A program made the translations under genes and the position numbers. Below, piece after piece: positions 20,951 to 39,579 of a stretch of 64,000 nt of DNA. This DNA comes from an uncultured Bacilli bacterium. Lineage in GTDB: Bacteria > Bacillota_I > Bacilli_A > RF39 > UBA660. Below the pieces are notes generated by a model, which saw nothing but the letters and a program-made list of their open reading frames with translations, was not told where the DNA came from and made no database searches. The stretch is taken from NCBI GenBank assembly GCA_910584255.1, contig CAJTXV010000001.1:17130-81129 (forward strand). The letters run 5' to 3'. The first letter of the stretch is position 1, and each line of letters opens with the position of its first letter.

Positions 20951-21007
20951 ACAACCACTTCCAAATATTTCAATCCTTTACAGAGGATGACTACCCTAAT
21001 TATATAT

Positions 21008-22202: not shown

Positions 22203-22380
22203 TATAACAAAAGAAAAGCACTTTTAAAAGTACTTTCTCAATTTTTAGTTATACTTTTGGGATTGGATGTAAAATCTTTTGATTGGTGAAGTTCTCTTTT
22301 TTTTGTTTTCTTTTTCCATATATTTAACCTTATTAATTCGTTAAAAATGTAACTCATTTCTTTAAATATTCGTTTGATTA

Positions 22381-24195
22381 TTAAGCATTTTTTCTAGCAT
22401 CAAATTTCTTTCTTTGATCCGTATTTAAAATTCTCTTACGAATACGAATAGATTGTGGTGTTACTTCTACCAATTCATCACTATTGATATAATCAAGTGC
22501 ATATTCTAATGTAATTGGGCGAGGTCTTTTTAAAACCACTGTTTTATCAGCACTCGCAGCACGCATATTAGTTAATTGCTTTCCTTTAACTACATTAACT
22601 GCTAAATCATTTTCACGATTACATTCTCCAATAATCATTCCTTCATATACATCGGTTGCAGGTTCAACAAACATAACTCCACGATCTTCTAATTGACCTA
22701 AAGCATAGGCTGTACTTTTCCCAGTGTCATTAGATACTAATACACCCAGTTTTCTTTCCCCTACTGTGATATTTTCATAAGGACGGTATTCTTTAAATGT
22801 ATGGTTGATAATTCCATATCCTTTGGTCATCGTCATAAAGTCAGTCATAAAACCAATTAAACCACGAGAAGGCACTGTATAATTTAGGCGCACTTGATTT
22901 TCAAAGTTAGTCATGCTCTCCATAATCGCACCACGAGTACCCAATTGTTCAATAACTGATCCTACTGATTCTTCAGGAACTTCGATTTGTAAGTCTTCGT
23001 AGGGTTCCATTTTAATTCCATTTTCTTCTTTAATGATAACTTTTGGTTTAGAAACTTCAAGTTCAAATCCTTCACGGCGCATATTTTCAATTAAAATCGA
23101 TAAATGAAGTTCTCCACGACCTGAAACTAGCCAACTTTCTCCATCACTTGGTTCTACTCTTAAACTAACATCCCTTTGAAGTTCTTTATTTAAACGGTCT
23201 TCAATCTGGCGTGCTGTTAAGAATTTTCCTTCTTTTCCAACAAATGGAGATGAATTTGTACCAAATGTCATTTGAAGTGTTGGTTCGTCAATATGTAGAA
23301 TTGGCAATGGATAATTTTCTCCCTGTGCACAAACCGTCTCTCCAACGGAAATATCACTAAGTCCTGCAATCGCTATAATATCTCCCGCTTCTGCTTCTTC
23401 AATTTCAATTCTTTTATATCCTAGGTAACCAAATAATTTTTGAATACGGAAAGATTTTGTTGTTCCATCTAAACGGATACAATTTACTGTTTGTCCTACT
23501 TTAATTTTACCATTTTGTACACGACCAATTCCAATTCTTCCAACAAATTCATTATAGTCCAAAAGTGCAGGTTGGAATTGTAGATGTTCTTCACTGGAAC
23601 CGCTTGGTGCAGGGATTTCATCAATAATTAAATCTAATAATTCACTAAATCCTGGTGTTTGCGTTTCTGGATTTGAATCTAGACTTGAAGTACCATTTAA
23701 AGCTGAAGCATATACGACTTTAAAATCTAATTGATCATCATCTGCTCCAAGTTCGATAAATAAATCTAGCACTTCATCTACTACTTGATTTACTCTAGCA
23801 CTTGGCTTATCTACTTTATTAATGACAACGACTGGCTTTATTCCTACTGCTAATGCCTTCTTTAATACGAAACGAGTTTGTGGCATAGTTCCCTCATAAG
23901 CATCCACTACTAAAAGGACACCATCTACCATGTTCATGATTCGTTCTACTTCTCCACCAAAATCCGCATGTCCTGGCGTATCCATAATATTAATCCTATA
24001 ATCTTTGTAATCAATTGCTGTTGTCTTCGCTAAAATTGTAATTCCACGTTCCTTTTCTAATTGATTAGAATCCATGGATAAGTCACTTACATTTTCATTT
24101 TCTCTAAATGTACCACTTGTCTTTAAAATCTCATCTACTAGTGTCGTTTTCCCATGATCGACATGGGCAATAATTGCAATATTTCTTTTTTTCAT
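22381..24195 (-). CDS. typA: Translational GTPase TypA/BipA
   Basis: [21 protein letters not shown] (G1), [14 protein letters not shown] (G3), NKVDK (G4). 604 aa. Confidence 0.9.
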
Positions 24196-24296
24196 ATAAA
24201 ATTCACTTCCCTAAACGTATCTTGACGATTATATCATACTTTTTTTGAAAAGAAAATAGTTTTTTTGAATCCAAATAAAATAAAAAGAGAAATTTT

Positions 24297-24602
24297 TTAT
24301 GGTTTTCTCTTTTTATGTTTTTCTAGATAAGCTTCATATCCGCCAATTAAATCTATTACTTGATATCCTATTTCTTGTAAGTGACTACAAATTTTTCTAC
24401 TTTTTTCTCCATGACTACAATATATATAATAAGTTTCCTCTTTTTTCAAATAATTTTCGGGCATCATTACTAAATAGGTATATGGAATATTTATTGCATT
24501 TGGAAGGTGTCCTAGTAGATATTGATATTTATCTCGAATATCAATTACATGATCATTAAATGTAAATGAATCGATATCCTGAATATCTAAAGAATCATAC
24601 AT
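24297..24602 (-). CDS. Rhodanese-like single-domain sulfurtransferase
   Basis: 101 aa with the active-site loop CSHGEKS and the characteristic DIRDKYQYLLGHLPNAINIP fold. Confidence 0.7.
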   Translation of the reverse strand: MYDSLDIQDIDSFTFNDHVIDIRDKYQYLLGHLPNAINIPYTYLVMMPENYLKKEETYYIYCSHGEKSRKICSHLQEIGYQVIDLIGGYEAYLEKHKKRKP

Positions 24603-24667
24603 GATATCACCTAATATATTCTATGAAAAAGAAAAAAAAGTGATAACTAGTATTCACTTTTTTACTT

Positions 24668-27496
24668 TTAATCATCAAAGAAATCATCAAAGAACTGATC
24701 ATCTGTCACATCAATTTCTTTTGCTGGAATTTGTTCTTGATGAATAATTGCTTCAGTCGAATCTTTTGGATTCTCTTTTACAGGTTCCATTGACTGAGAA
24801 TTTACTTTTTCTTCTACATTTTCGATAGGAGAAGTAGTACTTTGTTCCCCAATTTTTTCTGGTTTGAAAGAAGAAGTAGATAATAAATCACTCATTGACA
24901 TCGCACGAGGTTTTGTGTCCATTTCCTTTTTTTGCTCTGGAAGAGACATAACTACATTTGATTCAGTTTCTTCTTTCTTCTTTGGTTTTGGTAATGGGAA
25001 ATCCATCTTCAAGTCAGAAGATGAGAAACTTGTCTTTGGTTTTTCATTTTCTATTTTCTCTTCCACTGATTCAGACTTCTTCTCCATCTTTGGTACTTTA
25101 AAATCCATTTTTAAATCAGAGGATGAGAATCCTGCTTTCGGTTTTGTTTCTTCTTCCTGTTTTGTTTCTAATTCAGGACTGTCCTTTGGTAATGGGGAGT
25201 CAGTTTTCAAATCCAATTGGGTCTGTACAACTGTGCCAGATTCCTCATTGCTTGGTGTCTCCGTTGTTTCCTCTATTGCTTTCTCTGGTTTTAGAAGCAT
25301 TTCTGTCTTTGTAGGTTCTACCGTTTTTTCCTTTATATCACTCGTAGAAGGGGTGATTTCTGGTTTATTTTCTTCTTTCTTTTCTTTTTCTTGTATAACT
25401 GCTTCTTGAACAGTATCTTTTTCCTTTGGCGCATCTTTTTGAGTCGTTGCTGCCTGTTCTTTCTTTTTCTTCTCTTCTGCTTCAATTTGAGCAATTTTAG
25501 CATCGATTTTCTTTACTAAATCATCTACATTAAAACCAGATTTCGCAAGTCTTGAACTACTGGAAATCCCGCTGTTACTTTGTGGCATATTAGGAAGTCC
25601 TGGAGGTGTCCCCATTCCAGATAATGGAGGCATTCCACCAAGTCCAATTGGCATATTCGATGGACGATTCATATCTGACATACCTGGTATATTTCCCATT
25701 CCAGGTATTCCTCCCATTGGAGGCAAATTCATTCCACCTGGAGTTCCTACAGCACCCTGTGGATTATTCATCATTTCCATTAATTTTTCTTTTTTCTTCT
25801 CTTTTACAAATTCGCGAATATCAAAGGTATTCACTTCTTGTTTTTCACGTGTTGGATATGTTGCTTTTGGATATTCTTTATCCCAGTGCATTTTAAAGTC
25901 TGGTGTAAATTTTGTTTTAAACGGTGCTTGACGAATACGCATGATAATTACTTCGAATTGTTTCATTCGCTGTAATTCACTAATTGTAACTAGTGGTGTA
26001 GAAGCTGTTTTATCGTCTTTCTTACTCTTGACTTCCCCACACATTTTAGAAATTTCTTCCAAGGCTTTTAATTCTGTTGTAATCAAATAAATAATGTTAC
26101 CACAGTTACCTTTAATTGTTTCCGCATTTTCTTTTCCATAGACTTGATCTAATTGCGCAAAGTTCTGAATAATCATCGTAAAACGAACTTGTCGAGAACG
26201 AGCAGCCGTAATCATTGTTGTAATATCTTTTAGTGGTGGCATGTTTGCAAATTCATCTAGTAAGAAGTTTGTACGAATTGGCAATTTCCCACCATGTTCT
26301 TGGGCAACACTAATTAGTGTCTCATAACACTGTTTTAATAGAATTGTTACTAAAGAGTGATAAGTTTTCTTTTCGTCTTGAATGACAATAAATAGTGCCG
26401 TCGGTTTTTCGCCGATGGTTTTTAAATCAAAATCACTATGAGATAACATTTCTGATAAGTTTTCACGAGATGCAAAGAGTTTAATTTTCTGTTTAAATAC
26501 AGAAATAATAGATCCTTTTGTCTCATTTGGAGCCATAATAGTTCCTGATGCATTTGTATAGGCAGCAGAAGAAGGGTCTTTGGTTTCAAAATAAGATTTA
26601 ATGTAAGTTCCTCCACCAAACTTTTCTTCTCCAACTGTAGTCATTAGACTAATCGTATTTAAGTTTACTTTATCTTCTGTTGTATCTTCAAACATTCCAA
26701 GAGCAAGTCCTGAAAAATAATCAGCGGACGTTTTTTCCCAGAAAGGGTCAGCATTCCCACTCTTTTCTTCATATAGAATATTGGCAGCAAGGTCATCTAG
26801 TAACTCGATTGCTTTATCCTGATTTCCTGATTTATAAATACGATATGGTAGAGAAAGAGGGTTCCATGCATTTCCTTGTTGTGGATCACGAAAGTTTAAT
26901 ATCAATACGTTATATCCCTTTTCACGTAGCATATTGGAAGTATTTTCATAAATCTCACCTTTCGGATCGGTGATAATCATGGACTCACGCTTTTTGGCTA
27001 GTACATTTACCGTTGGGAAAATTACCGTCTGGGTTTTACCAGAACCAGTCGCACCAATGACTAAACTATGATATTCTCCATTATCTACCCATACTTCATT
27101 ATCTTTTAGGATTAACGGAACTCCAGCAGCTTTCGTTAAATCTTCTCCTGGACGAATCATTGCCATTTTGTATCCTTGTTTCATTTCTTTTTCTTTACAC
27201 CAACGACTATATCCTTTATCTGACTTTTCTGTTGAGAACCCAATTCCTGATTCTCTTTCAAAAAAGTAAGAACTAACTGACATAAAAATTCCTGCTAAAA
27301 AGAGGAAAAATAAAACTAAAGTTGCAGCAATTCTACTAGGTGCAAAAGCAGGAAAAGGATTTAAACCATAAAAATGTCCCTCTAATGCGAGTGTTGGGAA
27401 GTTTAACACCCCAAGACATACGACGTATAGTAAAAAAAATGCAAAAATTACAAAAATTAATACATCAGTAGCATCCGCTTTAAATTTTAATTTCAT
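24668..27496 (-). CDS. Type IV secretion coupling protein (VirD4/TraG/TraD family) with long low-complexity C-terminal extension
   Basis: Two N-terminal TM helices, Walker A in the context HSLVIGATGSGKTQTVIFP...IITDPKGEIYE (TraG/VirD4 signature), Walker B LLDEFANM. C-terminal about 400 aa of M/G/P-rich repeats (GMNLPPMGGIPGMGNIPGM), a duplicated FSSSDLKMDF motif and an acidic DDQFFDDFFDD tail. Confidence 0.8.
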   Translation of the reverse strand: MKLKFKADATDVLIFVIFAFFLLYVVCLGVLNFPTLALEGHFYGLNPFPAFAPSRIAATLVLFFLFLAGIFMSVSSYFFERESGIGFSTEKSDKGYSRWCKEKEMKQGYKMAMIRPGEDLTKAAGVPLILKDNEVWVDNGEYHSLVIGATGSGKTQTVIFPTVNVLAKKRESMIITDPKGEIYENTSNMLREKGYNVLILNFRDPQQGNAWNPLSLPYRIYKSGNQDKAIELLDDLAANILYEEKSGNADPFWEKTSADYFSGLALGMFEDTTEDKVNLNTISLMTTVGEEKFGGGTYIKSYFETKDPSSAAYTNASGTIMAPNETKGSIISVFKQKIKLFASRENLSEMLSHSDFDLKTIGEKPTALFIVIQDEKKTYHSLVTILLKQCYETLISVAQEHGGKLPIRTNFLLDEFANMPPLKDITTMITAARSRQVRFTMIIQNFAQLDQVYGKENAETIKGNCGNIIYLITTELKALEEISKMCGEVKSKKDDKTASTPLVTISELQRMKQFEVIIMRIRQAPFKTKFTPDFKMHWDKEYPKATYPTREKQEVNTFDIREFVKEKKKEKLMEMMNNPQGAVGTPGGMNLPPMGGIPGMGNIPGMSDMNRPSNMPIGLGGMPPLSGMGTPPGLPNMPQSNSGISSSSRLAKSGFNVDDLVKKIDAKIAQIEAEEKKKKEQAATTQKDAPKEKDTVQEAVIQEKEKKEENKPEITPSTSDIKEKTVEPTKTEMLLKPEKAIEETTETPSNEESGTVVQTQLDLKTDSPLPKDSPELETKQEEETKPKAGFSSSDLKMDFKVPKMEKKSESVEEKIENEKPKTSFSSSDLKMDFPLPKPKKKEETESNVVMSLPEQKKEMDTKPRAMSMSDLLSTSSFKPEKIGEQSTTSPIENVEEKVNSQSMEPVKENPKDSTEAIIHQEQIPAKEIDVTDDQFFDDFFDD

Positions 27497-27511
27497 AACT
27501 AACCCTTCTTC

Positions 27512-28288
27512 CTACTGAATTGAATTTACTTTTCTTGATTTTATATAAACACTCATTACGATGATTCCAACAATACCTACTATAACTAAGATAGCACTAC
27601 CAAGTAAAATTAACAAGCGAAAATCAAATTTTTTGTGTGTTTTATTTAATAAATTTATTTGAATACTTTTATTATTATAGTTATTTTTATTGATTTTCCA
27701 TATGTATTCTCCATCCACTACTTCATCTGCATTATGATTTTCTACTTCATGGTTCGTTTTTAATCTAATTTTAATTTCTTCTAAAATATCATAGGTATCA
27801 AAGCAAAGATTTTTATTAGAAGTTGAAAGAATTACACCATCTTTATTTTCATTTTCTACGATGGAGAAATTTTTATAACAAGTTTGAATTCCAGGCATTT
27901 TTTTTAATGAATTTCGACTTTCATAAGAAATGGTCTTTTTAGTAGAAATTCCAAGTTTCCCAATATCACTTACTTTTTCTAATCCTTCAATTTTTGCATC
28001 TGGATCTATGGTTTTTAAATCTACTAATTCTCTAAATGTTAAACTCGAAGTATCAGGTTCTCCATCTAAAATTCCACAAGTACCATCGCTACATAGATTG
28101 GGATCCATATTAAAATCTATCTCTTCATGCGTGTTTTCTACGACTGGCTGATTCCATTTCAGTTCATCAGTTTCTAGTAATTCTCCGTTTACTTTAATTT
28201 GATCATCTTGAATTTCAATGTTATATTCTACATTACAACCAGTCAGTAGAAAGATGATTGCCATTAAGAATAGTATCTTTTTTTTCAT
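27512..28288 (-). CDS. Lipoprotein with C-terminal TM anchor (T4SS-associated; possible VirB8/TcpC-like role)
   Basis: Signal peptide with lipobox LLTGC and a C-terminal hydrophobic helix LLILLGSAILVIVGIVGIIVM. Located between the T4SS hydrolase and coupling-protein genes. Confidence 0.45.
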   Translation of the reverse strand: MKKKILFLMAIIFLLTGCNVEYNIEIQDDQIKVNGELLETDELKWNQPVVENTHEEIDFNMDPNLCSDGTCGILDGEPDTSSLTFRELVDLKTIDPDAKIEGLEKVSDIGKLGISTKKTISYESRNSLKKMPGIQTCYKNFSIVENENKDGVILSTSNKNLCFDTYDILEEIKIRLKTNHEVENHNADEVVDGEYIWKINKNNYNNKSIQINLLNKTHKKFDFRLLILLGSAILVIVGIVGIIVMSVYIKSRKVNSIQ

Positions 28289-28296
28289 ATATCCTC

Positions 28297-30858
28297 CTAG
28301 TATCCTGTAAATGAGAAGTGCATGTAGTCTTTTGAACTACTCCAGTTACCTCCCCAACCCCATCCATAGTTACTAAATGCTTTTACAACGGGTCCATTTG
28401 GTTCTATAGAGTATGGACTTTCTCCAGGTTTCCAGAAGGAACCGGCAATGACATGTCCATTTCGAATCATATAATTTTCATTGGCATTGATATCACAGGC
28501 AACTCCATAACTATGGTGAGAGGTTGTCTGTCTATTTCCTGCCATACCACGCCAGGAATAACAATAAGCATCTTTTACTGGGAACCCTGCATTTGCGATG
28601 GCTGTAAAAATATTTACAACATCACTTGCAATAGCCTGATGGACAGTAAGTCTTCCTGTTCTAGCATTTCCGTTAATATCTACGAGCGGTACACTAACTG
28701 TCGTTAAATACTTTTGCATTTCAGCAGAAGACGTTGGAAGTCCATCTGGGAATAAAAAGGCAAGTTTTTCATTCACATTTCCATTCTTTACTTCTTCTCC
28801 ACTACCACCACTAGAAATGCTTATGTTTCCTGTATAGAAGTAATTTAAAATTTCATGATAGTTAGAACCGTCTGCTGCCATATCTGCTGCTGCAATTTGA
28901 CTCATTCCTCTACCATGTCCACCAGCGGCACGACCTAAGTAACGATTAGAAATTGTGACAGTATGAGTTTCACCCGAAGGCAATTTTTTATATGGGCAAC
29001 TTGTTTTTCCTGGACAATTCCAAGAATCATATTGAGCTAAAATAACTTTTCCATCTACGGTAATTACTTCTCCTCTGGTTGAGTTTGCTGCTTCCCAAGA
29101 CTCAGTTGAATAACTTGGATTAAAGTTTTGGGCATTCGAACTATTATCAATTGCCTGTTCACATTGGTTAGTACTTGCAATTACATAACTTCTAGCCGCA
29201 ACTGCTAGAGCTTTTTTAGATTCCATTCCGAAATCTGCATACATTTCTGCTTCTACAACACCTGCAATATATTCTTCTAAATCATAGGTTCCTGCATCTT
29301 TTCCTACTACGGTTACTCCATCTGGGCAAAAATTACTTGTCGTTTGATAGGAATAAAGTTCTGAACAATCTCTACTTGGACCCATAATAGTATAAAGGTC
29401 ATAGATATTATCAATTAATTGATTTGCGGCTTCAAACCGCTCGCTTCCCTCTTCTGCATATCCTACTTGCTTGGTTAAATATTCACTATAGTAATCTTCC
29501 ACAAAAGAATCTAATAAATTCCAGTAGTAAACTCCATCTTCCATATTTTCCCAATCACCAATACTTAATTCCGCAAAGTCTGTATTACTGCTTGGAGTCG
29601 ATGGATCACAGACCCTTTTTTCTTTTTTTTCATCCCCATCTTCATCTTTGAATGTAGCTGCTGGTATATAATAGTAATAAGCATAATTTTTTTCTTTATT
29701 TGCGGCTTTTGTAAAGAAATTAAACAAAGTAGACTCTTTATCATTTCTTGCAACGAGTCTTAAATCTTCACTGTTTCTAAGGGGAATATCTGTAAACCAT
29801 TGATCCCAAAGACTGATATCCATACACTCTTTGGCAACATTTTCATCCGTTACAATGATTTCCCTTGCTTCTTCTCCATCTGCACAAATATCTTTATAAC
29901 TAGACTCGTAACAATGCGGTTTTCCTTCTTTATATAATCCATATTTTTTTCTTTTAATCTGCATATTAACTAATATGTCTACATATTTTTCCATTTTTCG
30001 GTAGTCTGCAGCTGTTAATACATCTTGTGATTCTTCACTACAAGACTCTAAATCTTCACAAGGTTCTTCCCCTTCATCTAAACCACTATTAAAGGCTTTA
30101 TCCACAATTAAAGTAGCATGTATTAAATTTACATCGACACAAACATGATATTTTTGATAAGCATTGTCCTGTGCATGTTTTAATGTTTCATAGTACTCTT
30201 TTTCTGCTTTTTCAGTTTCCTTATTTCCAATCTCGTTTCCTTCATAGTCCCCGTTAAAGAATCTTAAAATGCTCATTGCAGGAATTAGAATAATACTAAC
30301 TGCTGCCAGTATAATGAATATAAAACATCCACAACTTAGAATAGGCATAGGAAGAGAAGCAAATAACATTTTGGGAAGTCCACTGTTTTTATCTTTATCT
30401 CCAGTTGCGTCTCCACTTGCTGGTGAACTATTCTTGTTTTTAGAAAATTGATTATTAGATTCCTTTGCTGCTTGTTGTTGTGCTAGATTCCCCGTTTTGT
30501 TTGTAGCATCCTCTAATCCTTCTTTTTTTAATCCTTCTTTAGCAAGAGTTTCTTTGGGAAGAGAACCTGCTTGATTGGATACATCTCCAGATGCCATATC
30601 GATTCCTTTATCGGCCATATCTAGAGCTTTACTTTTATCTAGTGCTTTTGTTAAGTTTTTTGCACCAGGCGCTTTATTTACCATTTTTCCTGCTGCATTT
30701 TCAATTGCTTGTCCTGCTTTTGTTTTACTAGCGATATCATAGGCTTTCGTTCCAAGAGGTCCTCCAAAATAGGTAGCTGCGGCTTTCCCCGCTACATGGG
30801 CAGTTTTTTGACCCGCTTGTTCTTCTTCCTGTTTTTCTTTTAGTTCTTCTTCGTCCAT
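28297..30858 (-). CDS. T4SS-associated cell-wall hydrolase: membrane-anchored, SpoIID/LytB-like domain plus LAS/M15 (VanY-like) peptidase domain
   Basis: One TM helix (LFASLPMPILSCGCFIFIILAAV). SpoIID-type signatures EEYIAGVVEAEMYADF...ALAVAARSY and GHGRGMSQIAAADMAADGSNYHEILNYFYTG. C-terminal M15 motifs SHHSYGVACDIN and DYMHFSF. Confidence 0.75.
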   Translation of the reverse strand: MDEEELKEKQEEEQAGQKTAHVAGKAAATYFGGPLGTKAYDIASKTKAGQAIENAAGKMVNKAPGAKNLTKALDKSKALDMADKGIDMASGDVSNQAGSLPKETLAKEGLKKEGLEDATNKTGNLAQQQAAKESNNQFSKNKNSSPASGDATGDKDKNSGLPKMLFASLPMPILSCGCFIFIILAAVSIILIPAMSILRFFNGDYEGNEIGNKETEKAEKEYYETLKHAQDNAYQKYHVCVDVNLIHATLIVDKAFNSGLDEGEEPCEDLESCSEESQDVLTAADYRKMEKYVDILVNMQIKRKKYGLYKEGKPHCYESSYKDICADGEEAREIIVTDENVAKECMDISLWDQWFTDIPLRNSEDLRLVARNDKESTLFNFFTKAANKEKNYAYYYYIPAATFKDEDGDEKKEKRVCDPSTPSSNTDFAELSIGDWENMEDGVYYWNLLDSFVEDYYSEYLTKQVGYAEEGSERFEAANQLIDNIYDLYTIMGPSRDCSELYSYQTTSNFCPDGVTVVGKDAGTYDLEEYIAGVVEAEMYADFGMESKKALAVAARSYVIASTNQCEQAIDNSSNAQNFNPSYSTESWEAANSTRGEVITVDGKVILAQYDSWNCPGKTSCPYKKLPSGETHTVTISNRYLGRAAGGHGRGMSQIAAADMAADGSNYHEILNYFYTGNISISSGGSGEEVKNGNVNEKLAFLFPDGLPTSSAEMQKYLTTVSVPLVDINGNARTGRLTVHQAIASDVVNIFTAIANAGFPVKDAYCYSWRGMAGNRQTTSHHSYGVACDINANENYMIRNGHVIAGSFWKPGESPYSIEPNGPVVKAFSNYGWGWGGNWSSSKDYMHFSFTGY

Positions 30859-30893
30859 AATATCACCTGCCTTTACTACGGTTTATTTACTTC

Positions 30894-32681
30894 TTATAGA
30901 CCTCCACCACTACCGAAAGATTCTAATTCTTCTGGTGTTAGGGTTACATTAATCTGCATACGTCTATTTCCACAGACAAATAATGCTTCTCCTTGAGAGT
31001 AACGTTTGATACTTTCCTTTTCATTATCATTTAAATCTATTAAACGTCCTAAATCTTCTACAGCTTGCTTTTTCAGTCCCATTACAAGGTAATATGAAGC
31101 ATTATCAAAGATTGCTTTTCCTTGCGTGATTACCTGAGGAGCAGCAAAATCGCTTGGTTGTTGTGTAATAATAATTGAACCAGTATTATATTTACGTGCA
31201 CGTCTTTGTACTTGTGCTAAGAAATCTGCTCCCAAAGAGTTTTGATCTGATAATAGTACATGGGCTTCATCTACCATTAAAATCGTATTAATATCTTTAT
31301 TTAAACAAAGACCCCATGCGTATTTTAAAACGTTAAAGAATAAAGCATTACGAATATTATCTGCAGAATTCATTAGTTCTTTGATATTAAATACAATGAA
31401 ATCCGTATCAGATGAAACTGTGGTATGCCCATCGAAATAGTATTTTAATTCTTGTGTTAGTGGACGAATTTTCAATTCTAGTTTTTCCATAATCATTCTT
31501 TCTTGTGTTCTATCTGTCATAGAAAGAAGTCTTCCTTTAATAGTTGCATACACATCTGAAAATGTTGGATAATCATTTGGTTGATAGTTATAGAAATTAC
31601 TATTAAAATCAATTCCGAAACGACGATACGTATCTTGAACCACTTCACTAAACATCGTTAAAACATCTTCTTCGATGGATGGATCATAGTATTTCATGAA
31701 ACCTTTTAGGAATTGTAGTGTACGAGTTAATACAGTATAACCAAGGCCTTCTTTGATTTCATCTTCATCCGCATCAATTACTACTTGGAGTGGATTTACC
31801 ATACCGTATTCTCCACCTTTACCAAGATCGATACTTTCTCCACCATATGCCCTAGTCATCTCAGAAAGTTCATCTTCAGGGTCAATTGCAACGATTTGAT
31901 ATCCATTACGAATATGAGAACGAAGCATTAATTTGGCTGCAGTTGATTTACCAGAACCTGAAGTACCTAAGATAATTAGGTTAGCATTATTTCTGTTATT
32001 TTCTTTTCTCATCTGATAAGCAAATTGATTAAATAGAATGACTCCACCTGAGAAATCTACTCCAAGTAAAGTAGATAACCCTGGATCTTTAATGCTATCA
32101 AAAATAAATGGATACATAGCTGCCAAAGTTGGTGTTGGAATTGGTGTTCCAATTCTTTGTTCTACATCTTGAGATGGGAAAATTGGAATAATTGATTTTA
32201 ATATTTTTTCTTGTTCAAATCGTAAAGATAAACCTCTCATTTCCATTGCATCTAAGTAATTCTTAATATTTACTTTCTTCATTTCTAGTTCTTCTTTCGA
32301 ATCTGCTAGAATCATGATGTGCATTTGAAAGTCAAAAATTTTAGATTGAGAGGATGCAAGCATGGTAACAAAGGATTCTAACGATTCAAAATCAAGTCGA
32401 ATTCTTTCTTTAATGGTTTGATCTTTTTCTTCTTGGTATCTTGTCTTTAAATCTGCAATTTGTTTATTTAACATCTTAGACATCATAGAAAATGGTACTG
32501 GAATATGTTTCGCAACAATTTTAACTCCAGACATGCTAGTTAATGATGCTAAAAATCCTGGATAAATTGTTTTTGGATAAGAAACAACGGTTACGATTGT
32601 TGCATACTTATCACTTACTGTAAAATCACTTAGCCCAAAGTGTAATCCCTTTGGTGCTACTTCTGAACGAAATCCCATCAT
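30894..32681 (-). CDS. VirB4-family T4SS ATPase (ATPase/DUF87 portion)
   Basis: Walker A LGTSGSGKSTAAKLM, Walker B ILMVDEAHVL and the VirB4-like C-terminal region. The start overlaps the stop of the upstream ORF by ATGA. Confidence 0.75.
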   Translation of the reverse strand: MMGFRSEVAPKGLHFGLSDFTVSDKYATIVTVVSYPKTIYPGFLASLTSMSGVKIVAKHIPVPFSMMSKMLNKQIADLKTRYQEEKDQTIKERIRLDFESLESFVTMLASSQSKIFDFQMHIMILADSKEELEMKKVNIKNYLDAMEMRGLSLRFEQEKILKSIIPIFPSQDVEQRIGTPIPTPTLAAMYPFIFDSIKDPGLSTLLGVDFSGGVILFNQFAYQMRKENNRNNANLIILGTSGSGKSTAAKLMLRSHIRNGYQIVAIDPEDELSEMTRAYGGESIDLGKGGEYGMVNPLQVVIDADEDEIKEGLGYTVLTRTLQFLKGFMKYYDPSIEEDVLTMFSEVVQDTYRRFGIDFNSNFYNYQPNDYPTFSDVYATIKGRLLSMTDRTQERMIMEKLELKIRPLTQELKYYFDGHTTVSSDTDFIVFNIKELMNSADNIRNALFFNVLKYAWGLCLNKDINTILMVDEAHVLLSDQNSLGADFLAQVQRRARKYNTGSIIITQQPSDFAAPQVITQGKAIFDNASYYLVMGLKKQAVEDLGRLIDLNDNEKESIKRYSQGEALFVCGNRRMQINVTLTPEELESFGSGGGL

Positions 32682-33217
32682 ACTGACACCACCCCAAAAT
32701 TAAAACTTCTTCCACCATTTAAGAAACTATCTAAAATAATTCTTAAATCTTCATTACTGGTTTGTCTTGCAATTAATCCTGCTTGTGCCAAGCCACTGAT
32801 TAACATACGAATCTTCTTTTGAAGCATTTCCAGATTCTTTTCTTTAAATAGAATATAATACTCTGTATCTACTACATTATTGTTCATAAAGCTATTTCCT
32901 TTTTGAATATCTTGACTGATAATTTTACGAATCGCAGGATTTGTCTGATTTTGATATTGAAGTTGGAGTGTTGATAGATACATAGAGATATCTACTGGTC
33001 GGTCTGCAACTACGAGCCAGAACTCAAAATCAATTAAGTTGTAGAAATTTTTTAAAGCAATCATAATATTACTTTGGGAAATTTCATCCAAGATAAAGAT
33101 ATTTCTTGGAGTAATTTTAACTCCACTTACTTTTGTCTGATCTGGAAGAATAATCATTCCATTTGAAATGGATTGAATATTAATCCAATTTTCTGTCCAT
33201 TGTCCATTGTTGTTCAT
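32678..33217 (-). CDS. Probable N-terminal domain of VirB4 encoded as a separate, translationally coupled ORF
   Basis: 179-aa ORF directly between the VirB3-like gene and the VirB4 ATPase. Its TGA stop overlaps the ATG of the ATPase ORF (gtcagtATGAtggga). Together they total about 770 aa, the usual VirB4 size. Confidence 0.4.
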   Translation of the reverse strand: MNNNGQWTENWINIQSISNGMIILPDQTKVSGVKITPRNIFILDEISQSNIMIALKNFYNLIDFEFWLVVADRPVDISMYLSTLQLQYQNQTNPAIRKIISQDIQKGNSFMNNNVVDTEYYILFKEKNLEMLQKKIRMLISGLAQAGLIARQTSNEDLRIILDSFLNGGRSFNFGVVSV

Positions 33218-33506
33218 CGCGTATACACCAACCTTTCCATAGATATCTTCTTCTACTTGTAAAATATTTATAAATCTCGATTAATAACTGTAATACGTTG
33301 TGGTAATAAGCAACGGGAGCTACCAGTAATGCTGATAGAATGGCAGGGGAAACAGCAACTACGGCAGCCCAAGTTTCTTGCATAGGCATTAATGCTACTA
33401 AAATAATGGTAATTACCACCCCGACTCCGAAGATACCTAAATCAACGGGTCGAAATAATCCAAAGATATATTGACCTCTTTTTGCATTGGCAGGGATTAA
33501 ATACAT
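33180..33506 (-). CDS. VirB3-like small membrane protein of T4SS
   Basis: 108 aa with two hydrophobic helices (IFGVGVVITIILVALMP; AAVVAVSPAILSALLVAPVAYY). Lies immediately upstream of VirB4, the conserved B3-B4 order. Confidence 0.4.
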   Translation of the reverse strand: MYLIPANAKRGQYIFGLFRPVDLGIFGVGVVITIILVALMPMQETWAAVVAVSPAILSALLVAPVAYYHNVLQLLIEIYKYFTSRRRYLWKGWCIRDEQQWTMDRKLD

Positions 33507-33524
33507 AATAGTTCACACTCCTTT

Positions 33525-35504
33525 TTATTTATTTTTCTTAGAAGCAGCAACCGCTGCAATATAATCGGCATCGGATTTTGTTTGAAGACTTGCAGCTTTA
33601 ATTAACTTCATCTGATCATCCATTTTCTTAAATCCATCTATAATTGCTTCATCTACACCTTCAATACCATTTAAATCAGCCTTATCGATTTTATCCTTAA
33701 TGGAATTCAATTCTGCAAGTAAATTAGCATTGCCGTCAGTATATGATGTATTTCCTTTTTGCATTTGATCTCTAAATACAGCTTGTTCTCTCTTTTCTAA
33801 TTCTGACACCAAGTAGTTTCCCTCCGAAACAGAAATACCCGTCATACCACCAAAATCAAAGGTACTTTGCCCTGCTGCTTTGGCTTGATCTAAGACACCT
33901 TGTAAATCTTTTGATTTACCAGTGATTGATGAATAATCTACATTTTGTCCTTTAGAAGAGTCATAGTGCTCTAATTTCTCACCAAATCCAAGCGATTGAA
34001 TATAAGAATCTGCTCCTAAAGAAACAGCATTATATTTTCCTTTTGTAGCCTCTTTCTTTTCTTCCGCACTGTAACTATCATGAGCTTTCGTTAATTCGTC
34101 CCAATCGTCTACATTCTGCTTTTTCGCTGCTCCTATTCCTTGGCCAGCAAAGGTACTAAAGAACCATTCTCGTGCTTGATGACCAGCAGTTACTCCAGAA
34201 ACTCGATCTGCGGCAAGTTCTGCATTTTTTGCTCGAATGGATCCAAGTACTTTCGTATAATCACTCTTCTCTCCTGCTGATTTATATCCAGCACGCCCAC
34301 CACTAATAGCACTAGAAATTCCTGACCCAAAGTTTTGAAGTAAATTTCCTTCACCTTTCGCAGCGGTAGCAAATCCAGCAACTCCTGAACCAACCATTCC
34401 AGCTGTTACAGCAGTTGTAGTTAATAATCCTGCAAGTCCTGAACCAAACTCACTATCTTTTAATCCAAGCGCTTTTTTAACAAACTTTGGTGCTTGGAAA
34501 GCAAATAGAAGCAGTCCAATAATGACAAATACCATTCCAAAAATTTTAGTGTCCCCTGCTAATCCAAGGAACGTTTTTCCGACATCGCTAATATCAACGA
34601 TTAACAAATCAACCAGTTCAATTGCAAAGAATAAAGCTCCAAAATGGATTAATAAATCTAGATAAGTAGTAATAAACATTTTCATATAAACGGAAGTTCT
34701 TCCACCATCTTTTGTAGATTTTGGATCCATATAACTGATAATTGGAACAGGTGCAATCATTTTTAGAAGAACCAACTTAAAAGCACGAATCGCAACTTGA
34801 ATTCCAATAATAAATAGAAGAGCTAAAATCGGTAATATACAAATCAATGCCCCTATAAAATTGAATTCGTATTTATATACGCTTTTATTATCACTACAGG
34901 CCTCTCCTGCCATGGTGACTGCTGTATCTAAAATATTTTTAGAGTCTTCTCCCTCATCGGAATCACCGCAATCCTCATTTTTATGAAAGAAACCTGCAAA
35001 AATTGTATTTGCAATGTTTTCTCCTACACTCACCGCACTTCCTGAATTCAATTTATCATCAGAGTCTAATACAGTATCAGAATCTAAAATCACTTTACCA
35101 ATTGTACTTAATAATGGGGCTTGAATTTTCGAAAGAAATGGAAAAACCGTTTGTGGTACAACGATTAGTAATACTAGCATTGTAATAAAGCGAGTTACAA
35201 GTTTTCCAGCCCCCACTTCTTTGTCTGTAATTTTATCGGGATTCGCAAAATAAGTAATTAAAGAGATTGTAACTTTAAATAACATAAATACACCAATAAT
35301 TACATAGAAACGGTTTTGAATTCCCTCATAAAGTGGAGTAAACGTACTTGAATTATCAAGTCCTGCAACTGCATATACAATTTCTAAAAAAAAGCCAACT
35401 AACTTATAAAGTGCAGCAAACATTAAGGCGAGTGCCTGACGAATATAAGTAAAAAATAAGCTTCGGTCCAATTCGCCAATTAACATTAAATTATTTAAAC
35501 TCAT
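33525..35504 (-). CDS. VirB6-like polytopic T4SS channel protein (TcpH/ConG/Tn916 Orf15-like)
   Basis: 659 aa with at least 6 TM helices in the N-terminal two-thirds and a long hydrophilic Gly/Ala/Ser-rich C-terminal region. Positioned in the T4SS operon. Confidence 0.5.
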   Translation of the reverse strand: MSLNNLMLIGELDRSLFFTYIRQALALMFAALYKLVGFFLEIVYAVAGLDNSSTFTPLYEGIQNRFYVIIGVFMLFKVTISLITYFANPDKITDKEVGAGKLVTRFITMLVLLIVVPQTVFPFLSKIQAPLLSTIGKVILDSDTVLDSDDKLNSGSAVSVGENIANTIFAGFFHKNEDCGDSDEGEDSKNILDTAVTMAGEACSDNKSVYKYEFNFIGALICILPILALLFIIGIQVAIRAFKLVLLKMIAPVPIISYMDPKSTKDGGRTSVYMKMFITTYLDLLIHFGALFFAIELVDLLIVDISDVGKTFLGLAGDTKIFGMVFVIIGLLLFAFQAPKFVKKALGLKDSEFGSGLAGLLTTTAVTAGMVGSGVAGFATAAKGEGNLLQNFGSGISSAISGGRAGYKSAGEKSDYTKVLGSIRAKNAELAADRVSGVTAGHQAREWFFSTFAGQGIGAAKKQNVDDWDELTKAHDSYSAEEKKEATKGKYNAVSLGADSYIQSLGFGEKLEHYDSSKGQNVDYSSITGKSKDLQGVLDQAKAAGQSTFDFGGMTGISVSEGNYLVSELEKREQAVFRDQMQKGNTSYTDGNANLLAELNSIKDKIDKADLNGIEGVDEAIIDGFKKMDDQMKLIKAASLQTKSDADYIAAVAASKKNK

Positions 35505-35510
35505 GCACTA

Positions 35511-36329
35511 CTACCTCCAATTCTGTATGACCATACCAATAAGTCCACATAATGAGGCATCTTTTCCTGTCGCATCACTATAGGCTTGTAGAATATATTT
35601 TAAAATTGATGGAACTAAGAATATGGCAATTACCACAATACAACGTTTTGTAAATTTAATTCCAGCTTTTGATAATGCATCTTTATCATTAGAAAGGATA
35701 GGACCTGAAAAATCCATTACACCAAAAATGATTAATGCAATTGGCATAATAATTTTTAAATAACCATATATTTCTTGAATGTATGGGACTAAATCTGAAA
35801 TTACCCCACAATTACCTAAAGATTTATTTTTCTTTTCTGTTGGAGTTTTTGTTGCTGGTTTACTTTCTGTTTTACTTATTTTTTTACCTGTATAGGAATT
35901 ACAGCGAAATGTTTCTGCACCATTCTTTAAGCCATTTCCTTTACAGCAAATTTTACTACTTTGTGTGGTAGTACTCGCATCAGTTGGGGATGTATAACTT
36001 TTTTGAAATGTCCAATTGCCATCACTTAAATTACAAGGAATATCCGTAAGTTCTTTACTACCATCACTTGTACTTTCTGCAACTGAAGTATAATAATCAC
36101 AATAATACTTTCCGCTTTTTTCACAACAAACTCTTTTTACTATCTCAAGATCATAATCTTTATTTTCACCTGCTTGTACACTTTCTGTATGATCAAATTT
36201 CCAAATATTTGAATTCACTCCACTAGAACTACAACTTCCACTCGATGTAACGGCATACACATAATTTATACTGAAAAAGAACGTCATAATTCCAAATACT
36301 AATAACATTCCTAATTTCTTTCTATTCAT
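35511..36329 (-). CDS. Secreted Cys-rich protein with C-terminal two-TM hairpin, first gene of T4SS operon (possible pilin-like/VirB2-analogous component)
   Basis: Signal peptide, about 10 Cys in the ectodomain and C-terminal helices IIMPIALIIFGVMDF / CIVVIAIFLVPSILKYIL. Confidence 0.35.
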   Translation of the reverse strand: MNRKKLGMLLVFGIMTFFFSINYVYAVTSSGSCSSSGVNSNIWKFDHTESVQAGENKDYDLEIVKRVCCEKSGKYYCDYYTSVAESTSDGSKELTDIPCNLSDGNWTFQKSYTSPTDASTTTQSSKICCKGNGLKNGAETFRCNSYTGKKISKTESKPATKTPTEKKNKSLGNCGVISDLVPYIQEIYGYLKIIMPIALIIFGVMDFSGPILSNDKDALSKAGIKFTKRCIVVIAIFLVPSILKYILQAYSDATGKDASLCGLIGMVIQNWR

Positions 36330-36372
36330 AAAGGCACCCCTTACTTACAATTAATTATAATTTATCAGAATA

Positions 36373-36401
36373 ATTATATCAGAACAAAAAACATTTGTAA
36401 A
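36373..36401 (-). promoter_or_regulatory. Putative sigma-70 promoter of the T4SS operon
   Basis: Minus-strand TTTACA-N17-TATAAT ending about 40 nt upstream of the ATG at 36329. Confidence 0.45.
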
Positions 36402-36505
36402 CCAATTCACAAGGATTCTTCCACGAAAAAAAGCCGAAAATAATTCTCTATACTCTCGACTCTTTTGCCACATTTTCTCTATTAAATTTGACAATTATGT
36501 GTGAA

Positions 36506-39121
36506 TTAGACACCGATTGACTTATCCATTCTCTTTAAATAAAGTTTCCGAATCCAATCGACGGGGATTACTGTCGTTGCTAATATCATCATGATAACTA
36601 GCTCCTTTAGTGTCAATCCGAAGGTTCGAAACAGGGAACCCCCAAAATAAATTAGACAAAGTTGGACAACGGTAATAAATCCGATAATTATAACAAATGC
36701 ACGATTCCACCAAATATTAGAAATTAAGTTCAGTCGTTCTGTCCTTGCATTAAAACAGTTAAAAATACCCATAAAGATAAAAAGTCCAAAGAATGCAGTC
36801 ATTAAGTATTTTTGATTTGGATCTACTCGAAAGAGGCTATGAATCCAAGGACTTTTTAAAAAGAAAACACATAAAATAGCAGAATAAGTACCAGTAAAAA
36901 GAATTTCATGCATCATGTATTTGTTCATAATTTTTTCATTTCTTTCTTTTGGTTTTTCTTTCATATATTCTAAAAGTGGTGGTTCATAAGCAAAGGCAAT
37001 TCCAGCGAGCGTATCCATAATCATATTAATCCATAACATTTGAATGACGGTTACAGGTGTATCAATTCCAATAAATGGACCAATAATTGATAAACTAATC
37101 GCACATAAATTTACTGTTAACTGGAAAATAATAAACTTTCGAATACTTTTAAAAATCGTTCTTCCAAATAAAATTGCCTTAGAAATTGATAGGAAGTTAT
37201 CATCTAAAATAACAATCTCACTTGCCTCTTTGGAAACCTCGGTTCCACTTCCCATAGCAAAACCAACATCGGCTTTTTTTAAGGCAGGTGCATCATTCAC
37301 ACCATCTCCTGTCATACCAACTACTAATCCCATCTGTTCACTGATACGGACTAACCTACTTTTATCTTGTGGTAGACTCCTAGCGACAATTTTAAGATTT
37401 GGTATTATATTTTTTACTTCATCATCACTTAATTTATTCAGTTCTTCACTGGTTAAAATTATATCATTTTCGCTATCAATTAATCCTACTTCCTCTCCAA
37501 TTGCGAGGGCTGTATCTTTGTTATCACCTGTAATCATCACAGTTTGAATTCCAGCATTTTTGACAAGTTTTACTCCTTCAATTGCTTCTTCTCTTACTTC
37601 ATCTTTTAATAAAATAAACCCAACGAGCGTTAAATTCTCCATCTCTTCTACATGGTACCGATCATTTACTGTAATGCAAAGAATTCGAAAACCAATTTTA
37701 GTATAAGCATGTACTTCTTTCTTTATCTTATCTAACTCTAATTTTAGTTTTTTTCCTGTTTTTTCATCATAATAAAATGTACATTTAGGTAAAAGTATTT
37801 CTGGTGCTCCTTTAAAAAGATTATATTTTTTATCCGTTTCAATTAAACAACTAGAATATTTCTGCTTGCTATTAAAAGGAATCCTTTTTAATACCTTTAC
37901 CTTGGGTACTTCCGATTTTATAAATTTAAGTAAAGAACGATCTGTCAAATTCCCACCAATAATATTACCATCACTACCATAGTTACTTTCATTGTTATAG
38001 TATAAAGACACTTTTAATAAATCATGGTACTTTTTACAACTAGCAAGTTCTAATTCATTGTCATAACGATTTCCCGTTCCTATTAGTATACCTGCAACCT
38101 CTAGTTTTCCCTTAGTAAGTGTTCCTGTTTTATCTGTATATAAAATATTGATATTTCCTGCTGTTTCAATCCCTACCAGTTTTCGTACTAACACATTATT
38201 TTTTAGCATTCGCTTCATATTGGAAGATAATACCAGAGTTATCATCATCGGAAGTCCTTCTGGGACTGCTACTACAATGATAGTTACCGCCAAAGTCAGG
38301 GCATATAAAATATGTCCACTGAGAAGTCGAAAATTTTGAATCGTTTCTAATATTTTGGTTCCTGAAAAGTTATTATCGATTACAATGACAGAAAAAAGAT
38401 AGGAAAATACTACTAGAAATGCACCAATATACCCAATTTTACTAATAAATTTAGCAAGTTCTCTTAATCTTCCTTTTAATGGGCTTTCAGGATTTTCTTC
38501 TTGTAACTCTAAGGCTATTTTTCCATAGTAGGTATCATTCCCTACCTTTTCTACTTTCATCCAAGCTGTTTTAGAATAAACAACTGTTCCTCGATACACT
38601 TTATTTTTATCTGTTACATTTCCTGATACGCTTTCTTTGTAGGCTTCTCTACTTTCTCCATTTAAACTAGATTCGTCTACTGTTAATTCTCCTTCGATAA
38701 TCACTCCATCTGCAGGAATTCTATCTCCTGTTTCAAGCCGAACTATATCTCCTACTACTAGTTCATCCATTGGAATTTCTTTTAAGGAACCATTTCTTTT
38801 TACTTTGGCACCAATTCTAGCTGCCTCTTCCTGTAACCTTTCAAATGCTTTTTCACTTCCATACTCTGAAATGGTCGAAATTAAACTCGATAAAAATATG
38901 GCGATGACAATTCCTAAAGTTTCAAACCAATCAAAATCCTTAAATAGAAAAATAGTTTTAATTACTAGCGCGATTAGTAAAATCTTGATGATAGGATCTC
39001 CTAGTGTTTCTATAAATTGATGAAGAAATGTTTTTCTTTTTTTCTTAGAAATCGTATTAGATCCGTATTTTTTTCTTGCTTCTTCTACTTCTTTTTCTGT
39101 TAGTCCAGTCATTCCTATCAT
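36506..39121 (-). CDS. P-type Ca2+-transporting ATPase (P2-type)
   Basis: Phosphorylation motif DKTGTLT, hinge GMTGDGVNDAPALKKADVGFAMG, TGDN motif MITGDNKDTA, ten predicted TM helices, 871 aa. Confidence 0.85.
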   Translation of the reverse strand: MIGMTGLTEKEVEEARKKYGSNTISKKKRKTFLHQFIETLGDPIIKILLIALVIKTIFLFKDFDWFETLGIVIAIFLSSLISTISEYGSEKAFERLQEEAARIGAKVKRNGSLKEIPMDELVVGDIVRLETGDRIPADGVIIEGELTVDESSLNGESREAYKESVSGNVTDKNKVYRGTVVYSKTAWMKVEKVGNDTYYGKIALELQEENPESPLKGRLRELAKFISKIGYIGAFLVVFSYLFSVIVIDNNFSGTKILETIQNFRLLSGHILYALTLAVTIIVVAVPEGLPMMITLVLSSNMKRMLKNNVLVRKLVGIETAGNINILYTDKTGTLTKGKLEVAGILIGTGNRYDNELELASCKKYHDLLKVSLYYNNESNYGSDGNIIGGNLTDRSLLKFIKSEVPKVKVLKRIPFNSKQKYSSCLIETDKKYNLFKGAPEILLPKCTFYYDEKTGKKLKLELDKIKKEVHAYTKIGFRILCITVNDRYHVEEMENLTLVGFILLKDEVREEAIEGVKLVKNAGIQTVMITGDNKDTALAIGEEVGLIDSENDIILTSEELNKLSDDEVKNIIPNLKIVARSLPQDKSRLVRISEQMGLVVGMTGDGVNDAPALKKADVGFAMGSGTEVSKEASEIVILDDNFLSISKAILFGRTIFKSIRKFIIFQLTVNLCAISLSIIGPFIGIDTPVTVIQMLWINMIMDTLAGIAFAYEPPLLEYMKEKPKERNEKIMNKYMMHEILFTGTYSAILCVFFLKSPWIHSLFRVDPNQKYLMTAFFGLFIFMGIFNCFNARTERLNLISNIWWNRAFVIIIGFITVVQLCLIYFGGSLFRTFGLTLKELVIMMILATTVIPVDWIRKLYLKRMDKSIGV

Positions 39122-39223
39122 AAAACATCCTCCTATTAAAAGATATGATGGACGAGTTATATTAGAAGTTCTATTTTTGTCAAAAAAGGAGATATCACAT
39201 ATATTAAAGAAGAAGGGAGAATT

Positions 39224-39532: not shown

Positions 39533-39552
39533 AAAATTATTAACTTAAGAGA

Positions 39553-39578
39553 AGAAAGATGATTTATTTCATCTTTCT
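39553..39578. terminator. Bidirectional stem-loop terminator
   Basis: Perfect 10-bp stem AGAAAGATGA/TCATCTTTCT with a 6-nt loop, followed by TTTATAC on the plus strand. Lies between convergent genes. Confidence 0.5.
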
Positions 39579-39579
39579 T

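Follow-up and report, generated by a model that had tools for sequence, protein, structure and literature searches.

The window analysed here is a stretch of 64,000 nucleotides of chromosomal DNA from an uncultured member of the Bacilli (contig CAJTXV010000001.1), with a guanine-cytosine (GC) content of about 31%. Positions 24668-36329 of its minus strand hold eight co-oriented open reading frames (ORFs), all intact and separated by gaps or overlaps of a few bases, which encode a type IV secretion system (T4SS). The original prediction had placed these ORFs correctly and offered two explanations for them, a degraded integrative and conjugative element (ICE) or a chromosomally domesticated T4SS, and conservation, selection and composition strongly support the second. 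Its VirB4, VirD4 and VirB6 assignments are upheld by searches with profile hidden Markov models (Pfam and NCBIfam), VirB6 by a narrow margin. Of the components expected of a monoderm MPF_FATA-type T4SS, a VirB4 ATPase, VirD4, a VirB6/TrbL-like protein and a wall hydrolase are present. A stretch identical to the window is found in the metagenome-assembled genome (MAG) GCA_949949055.1 (contig CATLHT010000002.1, offset 17285), up to about window position 48394.

Relatives of the operon are numerous. A scan of one genome per species gave at least 599 pattern matches, at least 550 of them encoding a relative, and the best 80 of these at least 550 loci (VirB4 identity 77-99%) were taken with 10-kb flanks for comparison. 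The gene order is kept in 80 of 80 loci: one or more pilin-domain genes, VirB6, VirB3, the VirB4 N-terminal domain, the VirB4 ATPase, the hydrolase, one or more small envelope proteins and VirD4, with ORF lengths that are conserved across loci. These loci come from MAGs assembled from the gut of humans, mice, rabbits, ruminants and chickens. The genomes are labelled as uncultured Bacilli, Bacillales or 'Tenericutes', Candidatus Onthousia or Clostridium sp. CAG:710, and they presumably belong to the GTDB order RF39. In databases the VirB4 ATPase has more than 120 clusters at 80% identity or higher, and full-length members are nearly all about 595 amino acids long. One relative has a SpoVAD gene (2.9e-121; L064:20159-21169) about 8 kb downstream of VirB4, and therefore at least some members of the lineage keep sporulation genes.

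VirB4 is encoded by two genes, both, like the rest of the operon, on the minus strand. The ATPase (595 amino acids, 30894-32681) contains the Pfam domains P-loop_TraG and AAA_10, matches the VirB4 C-domain of PDB entry 4AG5 at 3.9e-56 and has invariant Walker A (GTSGSGKST) and Walker B (DE) motifs. Its start overlaps the stop of the preceding gene (ATGA), which encodes the VirB4 N-terminal domain as a separate, TrsD-like protein of 179 amino acids (32678-33217, PF26593 TraC-like). Among curated VirB4 models, that of the mycoplasma ICE family (NF045975) scores best for both parts. The small protein matches its positions 100-276 (E 5.9e-14) and the ATPase its positions 299-893 (6e-104), with a score of 348 bits that stays under the family cut-off of 590. 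The small protein is also homologous (1.6e-12) to hyp227 of plasmid pBMB68, encoded directly upstream of that plasmid's VirB4. The description of VirB4 as split in two was right about the two ORFs but not about the damage it implied. The N-terminal domain is a separate ORF in 79 of 80 loci, the exception (L075) beginning inside the ATPase gene and not covering the smaller one. Because the arrangement occurs in all 79 covering loci and in the nearest plasmid system, the two-gene VirB4 is, on comparative grounds, ancestral and no sign of damage. It corresponds to the pairing of TrsD and VirB4 known from the pGO1 subclass and from Patescibacteria (PMC12102498).

The gene before this pair (33180-33506) overlaps it by 38 nt and encodes a membrane protein of 108 amino acids with a hairpin of two transmembrane (TM) segments and an invariant N-terminal motif, YLIPAN. 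The protein has no Pfam or NCBIfam match. It occupies the PrgI position of pBMB68 and aligns weakly with the PrgI-family protein of that plasmid (hhalign E 7e-4, probability 26%). By its size, topology and position together with this alignment it is tentatively taken to be VirB3/PrgI-like, so that the VirB3-like assignment made earlier is kept with weak support. The polytopic membrane protein of 659 amino acids encoded at 33525-35504 has six predicted TM segments and a hydrophilic C-terminal extension of about 320 amino acids. Its VirB6/TrbL-like character is indicated by a match to TrbL_4 (1.8e-6) that narrowly passes the gathering score (28.0 bits against 27), and by a weak match to the NCBIfam pLS20_p028 family. 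In 77 of 80 loci a VirB6-like gene occupies the equivalent place.

The last gene of the operon (24668-27496) encodes a VirD4-type coupling protein of 942 amino acids with two TM segments, an NTPase domain and a disordered tail. It matches Pfam T4SS-DNA_transf at 1.2e-59 and NCBIfam NF045973 (conju_CD1115) with 309 bits, above the cut-off of 250. The tail, about 380 amino acids rich in lysine, glutamate, serine and proline, varies widely between species, and the 200-380 or so amino acids preceding the C-terminal motif are hypervariable. The last eight residues, FFDDFFD[D/N/E], are nevertheless found in 66 of 66 full-length VirD4 orthologues (L010-L086; positions 24668-24700 in the window, where the protein ends in FFDDFFDD), two or three of which have two or three more acidic residues beyond them. 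The VirD4 of pBMB68 does not have the motif, which looks like a docking motif for a partner, judged by its conservation at the end of a variable tail. Within the tail-coding region (24950-25250) there are three imperfect direct repeats of 29 nt, about 100 nt apart, that encode ...SSSDLKMDF.... Directly after VirD4, genes of the staphylococcal nuclease family and bPH_3 genes are found in L032, L038, L039, L046, L049 and L092 (e.g. L038:17268-17885), and a TraF-like thioredoxin gene with bPH_3 in other relatives (L090:17101-18085); these nuclease, thioredoxin and bPH_3 genes are candidate accessory or substrate genes.

The first gene of the operon (35511-36329) encodes a secreted protein of 272 amino acids with a signal peptide, two cysteine-rich beta modules, a linker and a C-terminal hairpin. 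It contains 11 cysteines and has TM segments at residues 187-205 and 222-240. The two cysteine-rich modules are related to each other, and some homologues carry only one. The conserved C-terminal 100 amino acids are similar to small pilins encoded by relatives (1e-9 to 6e-18), and PF18895 (T4SS_pilin) is matched by 17 of 33 family members (best 2e-7), the window protein itself falling below the threshold. An AlphaFold2 model has helices at residues 181-213 and 216-254 with a pLDDT of about 70-76, the whole-model mean being a weak 56, and with this model Foldseek returned no PDB structure at or below E 0.001. The family as a whole therefore suggests that the protein ends in a helical hairpin of the VirB2-like T4SS_pilin type. 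A conserved cysteine stands before helix 1 and another after helix 2, and a disulfide between them may join both ends of the hairpin, loosely like the cyclisation of VirB2/TrbC. A TraF-like thioredoxin is encoded near the locus in seven relatives. Of the 80 loci, 75 have pilin-domain genes, and many of these carry two to four paralogues with variable N-terminal domains; the window has one. A relationship of the pilin family to the 126-amino-acid protein at the equivalent position of pBMB68 was considered and rejected (hhalign E 0.33).

Two further envelope proteins are encoded between VirB4 and VirD4. The first is a bifunctional wall hydrolase of 853 amino acids (28297-30858), the analogue of VirB1, which is anchored in the membrane by one TM segment (173-191) and has a cysteine-rich region, a SpoIID lytic transglycosylase domain (1.8e-13) and a peptidase domain (Peptidase_M15_4, 4.7e-17). 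The second domain is swapped among relatives, for example SpoIID with CHAP in L090, while the position of the gene is kept (family f6, 70 loci). The second is a lipoprotein of 258 amino acids (27512-28288) with a signal peptide, the lipobox LTGC, in which G17 and C18 are invariant, and a C-terminal TM segment. Its ectodomain is beta-rich with an LppM-like fold and is not VirB8-like. The hydrolase, the lipoprotein and the cysteine-rich secreted protein with two TM segments had all been recognised from the sequence, and the Pfam domains, the lipobox and the predicted signal peptide and TM segments agree with those calls.

The operon has evolved together with the genomes that carry it. In ten loci that hold both genes the identity of VirB4 follows that of typA, from 99/98 down to 84/85, and pairwise identities of VirB4 and RmuC are correlated (rho 0.59) with VirB4 the higher of the two (0.86 vs 0.78). 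Against five relatives, the ratio of nonsynonymous to synonymous substitution rates (dN/dS) is 0.007-0.058 for the VirB4 ATPase and 0.012-0.076 for typA. It is 0.02-0.15 for the VirB4 N-terminal protein (by itself 0.02-0.09), the VirB3-like protein and VirD4, while the envelope-exposed proteins have values of 0.08-0.73; for seven of the eight genes the range is 0.007-0.4. The pilin-domain gene has 0.16-0.32 in close comparisons and 0.73 in the most distant one. With dS near saturation, as in that comparison, all of these ratios are approximate. Surface parts are only 25-50% identical where VirB4 is 77-89% identical. This is what vertical inheritance and strong purifying selection would give, with surface parts that evolve fast. 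Synonymous divergence of the operon genes is like that of the flanks, and because dS between loci is 0.6-1.8 a single recently spread element is excluded. The genes around the operon in the relatives are core genes, including typA, RmuC, a DedA/VTT protein, a class Ib (Tyr/Trp-type) tRNA synthetase and holA. Synteny with the window holds for the operon, with order kept throughout, while the relatives' flanks are other core genes (RmuC, DedA/VTT, holA).

Features of mobile elements were looked for in and around the operon. Family searches with Pfam and NCBIfam covered 40 ORFs of the window: 37 of the 39 minus-strand ORFs of at least 100 amino acids, the two plus-strand ORFs considered to be genes and one ORF of 66 amino acids. 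The ORFs at 59494-59973 and 60038-60427 were scanned against NCBIfam only, and the edge ORF at 63515-63988 was left out. No relaxase, integrase, transposase or replication family was found among these 40 ORFs or within 10 kb past the window start on the low-coordinate side, there was no relaxase or integrase among the recurrent gene families of the 80 loci, and tblastn with the MobP3 relaxase of pBMB68 as query gave no match. The earlier statement that no relaxase, integrase or replication genes are in view holds for the ORFs covered in the window and for the 10 kb beyond it. Around the module there are no att-like direct repeats, just low-complexity imperfect ones, and the sole tRNA gene of the window is 12 kb away, beside gltX. 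The GC content at third codon positions is 0.215 in the T4SS genes and 0.199 in the other genes of the window, so that the composition is like that of the neighbours, and there is no compositional island signal in the 64 kb. A reading of the locus as a defence system was dropped, since PADLOC models gave only generic similarity to HerA/FtsK-type ATPases.

No plasmid VirB4 in PLSDB exceeds 27.6% identity, the best being those of Bacillus thuringiensis plasmids such as pBMB68. Among 1.84 billion representatives clustered at 50% identity the clade amounts to one representative (72%), followed by rare sequences at 45% and 42% and then by sequences at 34% or less. Named sequences in this last range are from Thomasclavelia ramosa and Solobacterium, the nearest named relatives being Erysipelotrichales at about 33%.

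In most relatives (L014, L018, L024-L089; e.g. L051:1-6107) a Tad-like module lies directly upstream on the same strand. It comprises DUF5411, an RcpC/CpaB-like protein, a CpaF-like T2SSE ATPase, two membrane proteins of TadB/C size (about 260-300 amino acids), a protein of about 65 amino acids and two more, and one or more small T4SS_pilin genes are found between this module and VirB6. The window and its four closest relatives (L010-L013) have a P-type ATPase gene where the others carry the module. No homologue of the module families (f7-f12 and f15) was found in the 64 kb, and no T2SSE match in the 10 kb beyond the window start. Because the Tad-like module is absent at this position and there is a single pilin-domain gene, the lineage of the window is, by comparison with its relatives, the carrier of a reduced version of a larger Tad-plus-T4SS locus. 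This reduction escaped the original prediction, as did the VirB2-like pilin domain and the LppM-like lipoprotein. A SpoIIIA-like 'feeding tube' reading of the upstream module was dropped because RcpC/CpaB and the CpaF-like ATPase fit a Tad-like module better, as does synteny with the DUF5411-SAF-T2SSE genes of pBMB68.

The nearest plasmid system, pBMB68, has the order MobP3 relaxase, VirD4 (CD1115), a 126-amino-acid protein, TrbL, PrgI, a 227-amino-acid protein, VirB4 and NlpC/P60, with DUF5411, SAF, AAA and a T2SSE ATPase further on. It shares with the window the succession of TrbL, PrgI (tentative in the window), the 227-amino-acid TrsD-like protein, a VirB4 of about 630 amino acids and a wall hydrolase, as well as a VirD4 of the same CD1115 family, and its DUF5411-SAF/RcpC-T2SSE ATPase module matches the Tad-like module of the window's relatives. 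On the other hand, the identity is only 27.6-32%, the plasmid has replication functions, and MobP3 relaxase and VirD4 head its operon, whereas VirD4 is last in the window and there is no relaxase. We take pAW63/pXO2-like plasmids to belong with conjugation regions of the pBMB68 type.

The T4SS of mycoplasma ICEs (Mbov_0397-family VirB4, NF045975) provides the top-scoring curated model, and its hosts are related low-GC Bacilli/Mollicutes. These elements are not known to have a classical relaxase. Their VirB4 is one polypeptide of about 890 amino acids whereas it is encoded by two genes here, and they are mobile elements of wall-less hosts with a DDE recombinase, in contrast to the fixed locus of the window with its wall hydrolases and no recombinase. 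Clusters of Streptococcus suis (89K) and Clostridioides difficile ('type IVC') are also Gram-positive sets of the VirB1/B3/B4/B6/D4 type for which a non-conjugative (effector) role has been proposed (PMC12857230; 10.1101/2021.07.12.452133). They are found on mobile islands or transposons in some strains only, whereas the operon described here is lineage-wide and includes a pilin-domain gene.

The closest analogue in organisation is the chromosomal T4SS of Patescibacteria, or candidate phyla radiation (CPR), as described in PMC12102498. That system is of the MPF_FATA type, is encoded on the chromosome, mostly without a relaxase, includes TrsD and VirB2-like pilins, and is essential when these bacteria grow as epibionts (PMC12102498, PMC10633639, PMC12857230). 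The likeness, for instance to Southlakia epibionticum, extends to a monoderm MPF_FATA-derived system that is chromosomal, lineage-wide and without an adjoining relaxase. In both, virB4 has a TrsD-like gene beside it and wall-hydrolase genes downstream, a VirB6-like and (in the window tentatively) a VirB3-like gene are present, VirB2-like pilins are encoded by one gene or several, and the host lineage is uncultured. The host here differs in that it is a walled low-GC lineage of the Bacillus class. CPR VirD4 is mostly unlinked and not essential, whereas VirD4 here lies inside the operon and is strongly conserved, and the pilin domain is fused to cysteine-rich modules, unlike in Patescibacteria.

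Taken together, it is very probable that the locus is domesticated, vertically inherited and functional. The fuller reading that we prefer is held with moderate confidence: a functional chromosomal T4SS, inherited vertically, that derives from a monoderm MPF_FATA conjugation apparatus and is now a fixed trait of a gut Bacilli lineage. No genes for DNA processing or integration stand alongside, and the ordinary transfer of plasmids or ICEs is therefore probably not what the system is for. By analogy with what is thought for Patescibacteria, we propose tentatively that it handles a non-conjugative substrate and serves contact-dependent transfer to or from another cell rather than the movement of an ICE or plasmid.

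A mechanism along these lines would start from an ancestral apparatus (pAW63/pBMB68-like and mycoplasma-ICE-like) that became separated from its relaxase and from any module for integration. The TrsD-like protein, the VirB4 ATPase and the VirB3-like and VirB6-like proteins would form the membrane translocon, and the membrane-anchored SpoIID and M15 hydrolase would open the wall locally. VirB4 might pull the pilin-domain protein out of the membrane for assembly into a short conduit or adhesin at the surface, which would display the fast-evolving cysteine-rich modules, with the LppM-like lipoprotein acting at the interface of membrane and wall. The invariant acidic-aromatic C-terminus of VirD4 could recruit a cytoplasmic substrate or an adaptor and so feed the substrate into the channel.

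Several points weigh against this reading. The evidence for the pilin hairpin is indirect for the window protein itself, the VirB3/PrgI-like protein is a tentative assignment, and no VirB8-like (NTF2-fold) component was found. The negative result for a relaxase covers 64 kb of this genome and 10 kb on the low-coordinate side, and no effector candidate was identified. A DNA substrate is moreover plausible, because VirD4 passes the cut-off of the conjugation-named CD1115 family and the best VirB4 model comes from mycoplasma ICEs.

The most serious alternative, though an unlikely one, is that the operon is still a machine for DNA transfer, exchanging chromosomal DNA either with a relaxase encoded elsewhere or without one, like the transfer linked to mycoplasma ICEs. 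Chromosomal transfer in mycoplasmas is not known to need a classical relaxase, and the two matches just named count for this alternative, NF045975 being the best model for both VirB4 parts and VirD4 scoring above the cut-off for conjugal coupling proteins. The VirB4 score is, however, well short of the NF045975 cut-off (348 vs 590), and neither the scanned ORFs of the window, nor the adjoining 10 kb, nor the recurrent families of the 80 loci include a relaxase family. Mobile conjugation modules, moreover, are not conserved as strongly as typA in hundreds of species with no element borders. In favour of DNA transfer, the nearest plasmid system is conjugative with a MobP3 relaxase beside VirD4, and nearly all known Gram-positive T4SSs move DNA, and only DNA (PMC12857230).

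It is improbable that the system takes up DNA in the manner of ComB or releases it like that of the gonococcal island, serving nucleotide or gene acquisition in a genome-reduced organism. Such a role would suit a chromosomal, relaxase-less and lineage-wide locus, and some relatives have a gene of the staphylococcal nuclease family directly after VirD4, and holA nearby. Yet the nuclease neighbour is found in only 5 of 80 loci, and VirD4 is in the operon, intact and conserved, whereas ComB-type uptake systems are not known to have a coupling protein. The gonococcal release system uses a relaxase, and none is seen here. RF39 has been reported as genome-reduced and auxotrophic (PMC12306168), a point that applies if the lineage is RF39, as assumed above.

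Equally improbable is that the operon serves mainly for attachment, by building a pilus or adhesin from pilin-domain proteins on the cell surface, with no translocation of a substrate. The frequency of pilin-domain genes and their paralogues, the fast-evolving surface parts and the Tad-like pilus module adjoining the operon in most relatives all suit such a structure. The formation of a T4SS pilus is not known to need VirD4, however, and the conserved VirD4, with invariant Walker motifs and a C-terminal motif of docking type, implies that a substrate is recruited. The conservation of VirD4 within the operon lowers the likelihood of this role and of DNA uptake or release alike. The idea of a degraded ICE or plasmid remnant between core genes, which could appeal to the missing relaxase, integrase and replication genes, to VirB4 in two ORFs and to the loss of the upstream Tad-like module and small pilin genes in this lineage, is rejected with near certainty, because the operon has the pattern of vertical descent and purifying selection, and its eight ORFs are intact, the two-gene VirB4 is ancestral and universal, att repeats are absent, the composition is host-like and the order is conserved in 80 species.

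If the preferred reading of a domesticated T4SS is right, the operon is a second case, within Bacillota, of a large lineage with a relaxase-less, pilin-bearing T4SS as a core chromosomal trait. VirB2-type pilins have not been found in Gram-positive T4SSs, with Patescibacteria as the sole exception (PMC12857230), and full-text searches, within the library searched, found no literature linking this lineage to a T4SS. New are a domesticated monoderm T4SS in a new and large host lineage, an in-operon VirD4 with an invariant tail, the fusion of a pilin domain to cysteine-rich modules and an LppM-like lipoprotein. The T4SS motor is conserved as tightly as a translation factor, and the system is a plausible evolutionary bridge between the conjugation machinery of Bacillus and Mollicutes and the system of Patescibacteria. 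The FFDDFFDD tail provides a handle for finding the substrate or adaptor. The locus suggests that these abundant gut bacteria, so far uncultured, rely on touching other cells directly, which could guide co-culture. A bolder step, and a doubtful one drawn from the parallel with the essential T4SS of Patescibacteria, would be to see the operon as the core of an obligatory cell-to-cell device in a major uncultured and genome-reduced order of gut Bacilli, probably RF39, with a Tad-like pilus next to it in most members and a VirB2-type pilus-like conduit moving molecules to or from a partner cell. If true, this would help to explain why the lineage resists cultivation.

The operon is flanked on one side by typA (22381-24195) and a gene for a single-domain rhodanese of 101 amino acids (24297-24602, minus strand; Rhodanese 3.6e-15) and on the other by a gene for a P-type cation ATPase (36506-39121). 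Family matches confirm these flanks, the presumed Ca2+-ATPase as a P-type cation ATPase. The gap of 65 nt between the rhodanese gene and VirD4 has no terminator-like site, and in 39 loci a rhodanese gene follows VirD4, either at once or with family f11 in between. Rhodanese is thus a conserved downstream neighbour, and the gap and the recurrent position suggest that it may be co-transcribed with the operon. It stays downstream of VirD4 across species in which the rhodanese itself is a mere 40-50% identical.

A promoter-like site, TTTACA-N17-(TG)TATAAT, is present at 36373-36401 (minus strand) in the gap of 176 nt after the P-type ATPase gene. It matches the consensus hexamers at 11 of 12 positions with an upstream TG and is the top hexamer match in 21000-40000 (19 kb). 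Such sites are not commoner in the region than in shuffled sequences, so the promoter proposed at this position is the best match available but is a match to the consensus only. Downstream of it, a ribosome-binding site, AAGGGGTG, is found 8 nt ahead of the first ATG.

The window also holds the core genes gltX, smc, pnp and ileS. Two loci for surface proteins are also found. A sortase-dependent pilus cluster (3617-10491) has three sortase genes, an LPXTG backbone pilin (GramPos_pilinBB/SpaA), a second pilin-like ORF and a tip-like protein of 708 amino acids with SpaA and Listeria-Bacteroides repeats. At 12584-20950 a surface protein of 2788 amino acids is encoded, with 17 cadherin-like beta-sandwich repeats, two ALK/LTK glycine-rich domains and a C-terminal dockerin, a combination that is unusual for a gut member of the Bacilli.

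Some ORFs elsewhere in the window are partial. At 48331-48666, upstream of an ABC-2 permease, only the C-terminal half of an ABC transporter ATPase is found (about positions 129-221 of a profile of 223), with 48667-49451 unassigned; this may be a frameshifted pseudogene or an assembly error. An isolated ORF of 106 amino acids between core genes (54685-55005) has a partial BRO-N domain and may be a remnant of phage-derived DNA. Two short ORFs at 59494-60427, one of which matches the PASTA domains of Stk1/PknB-type kinases (positions 364-455 of 563), look like a fragment of a kinase gene. A search with Rfam gave a single RNA gene for the whole window, a tRNA-Gln (anticodon CUG) at 12422-12496, directly downstream of gltX.

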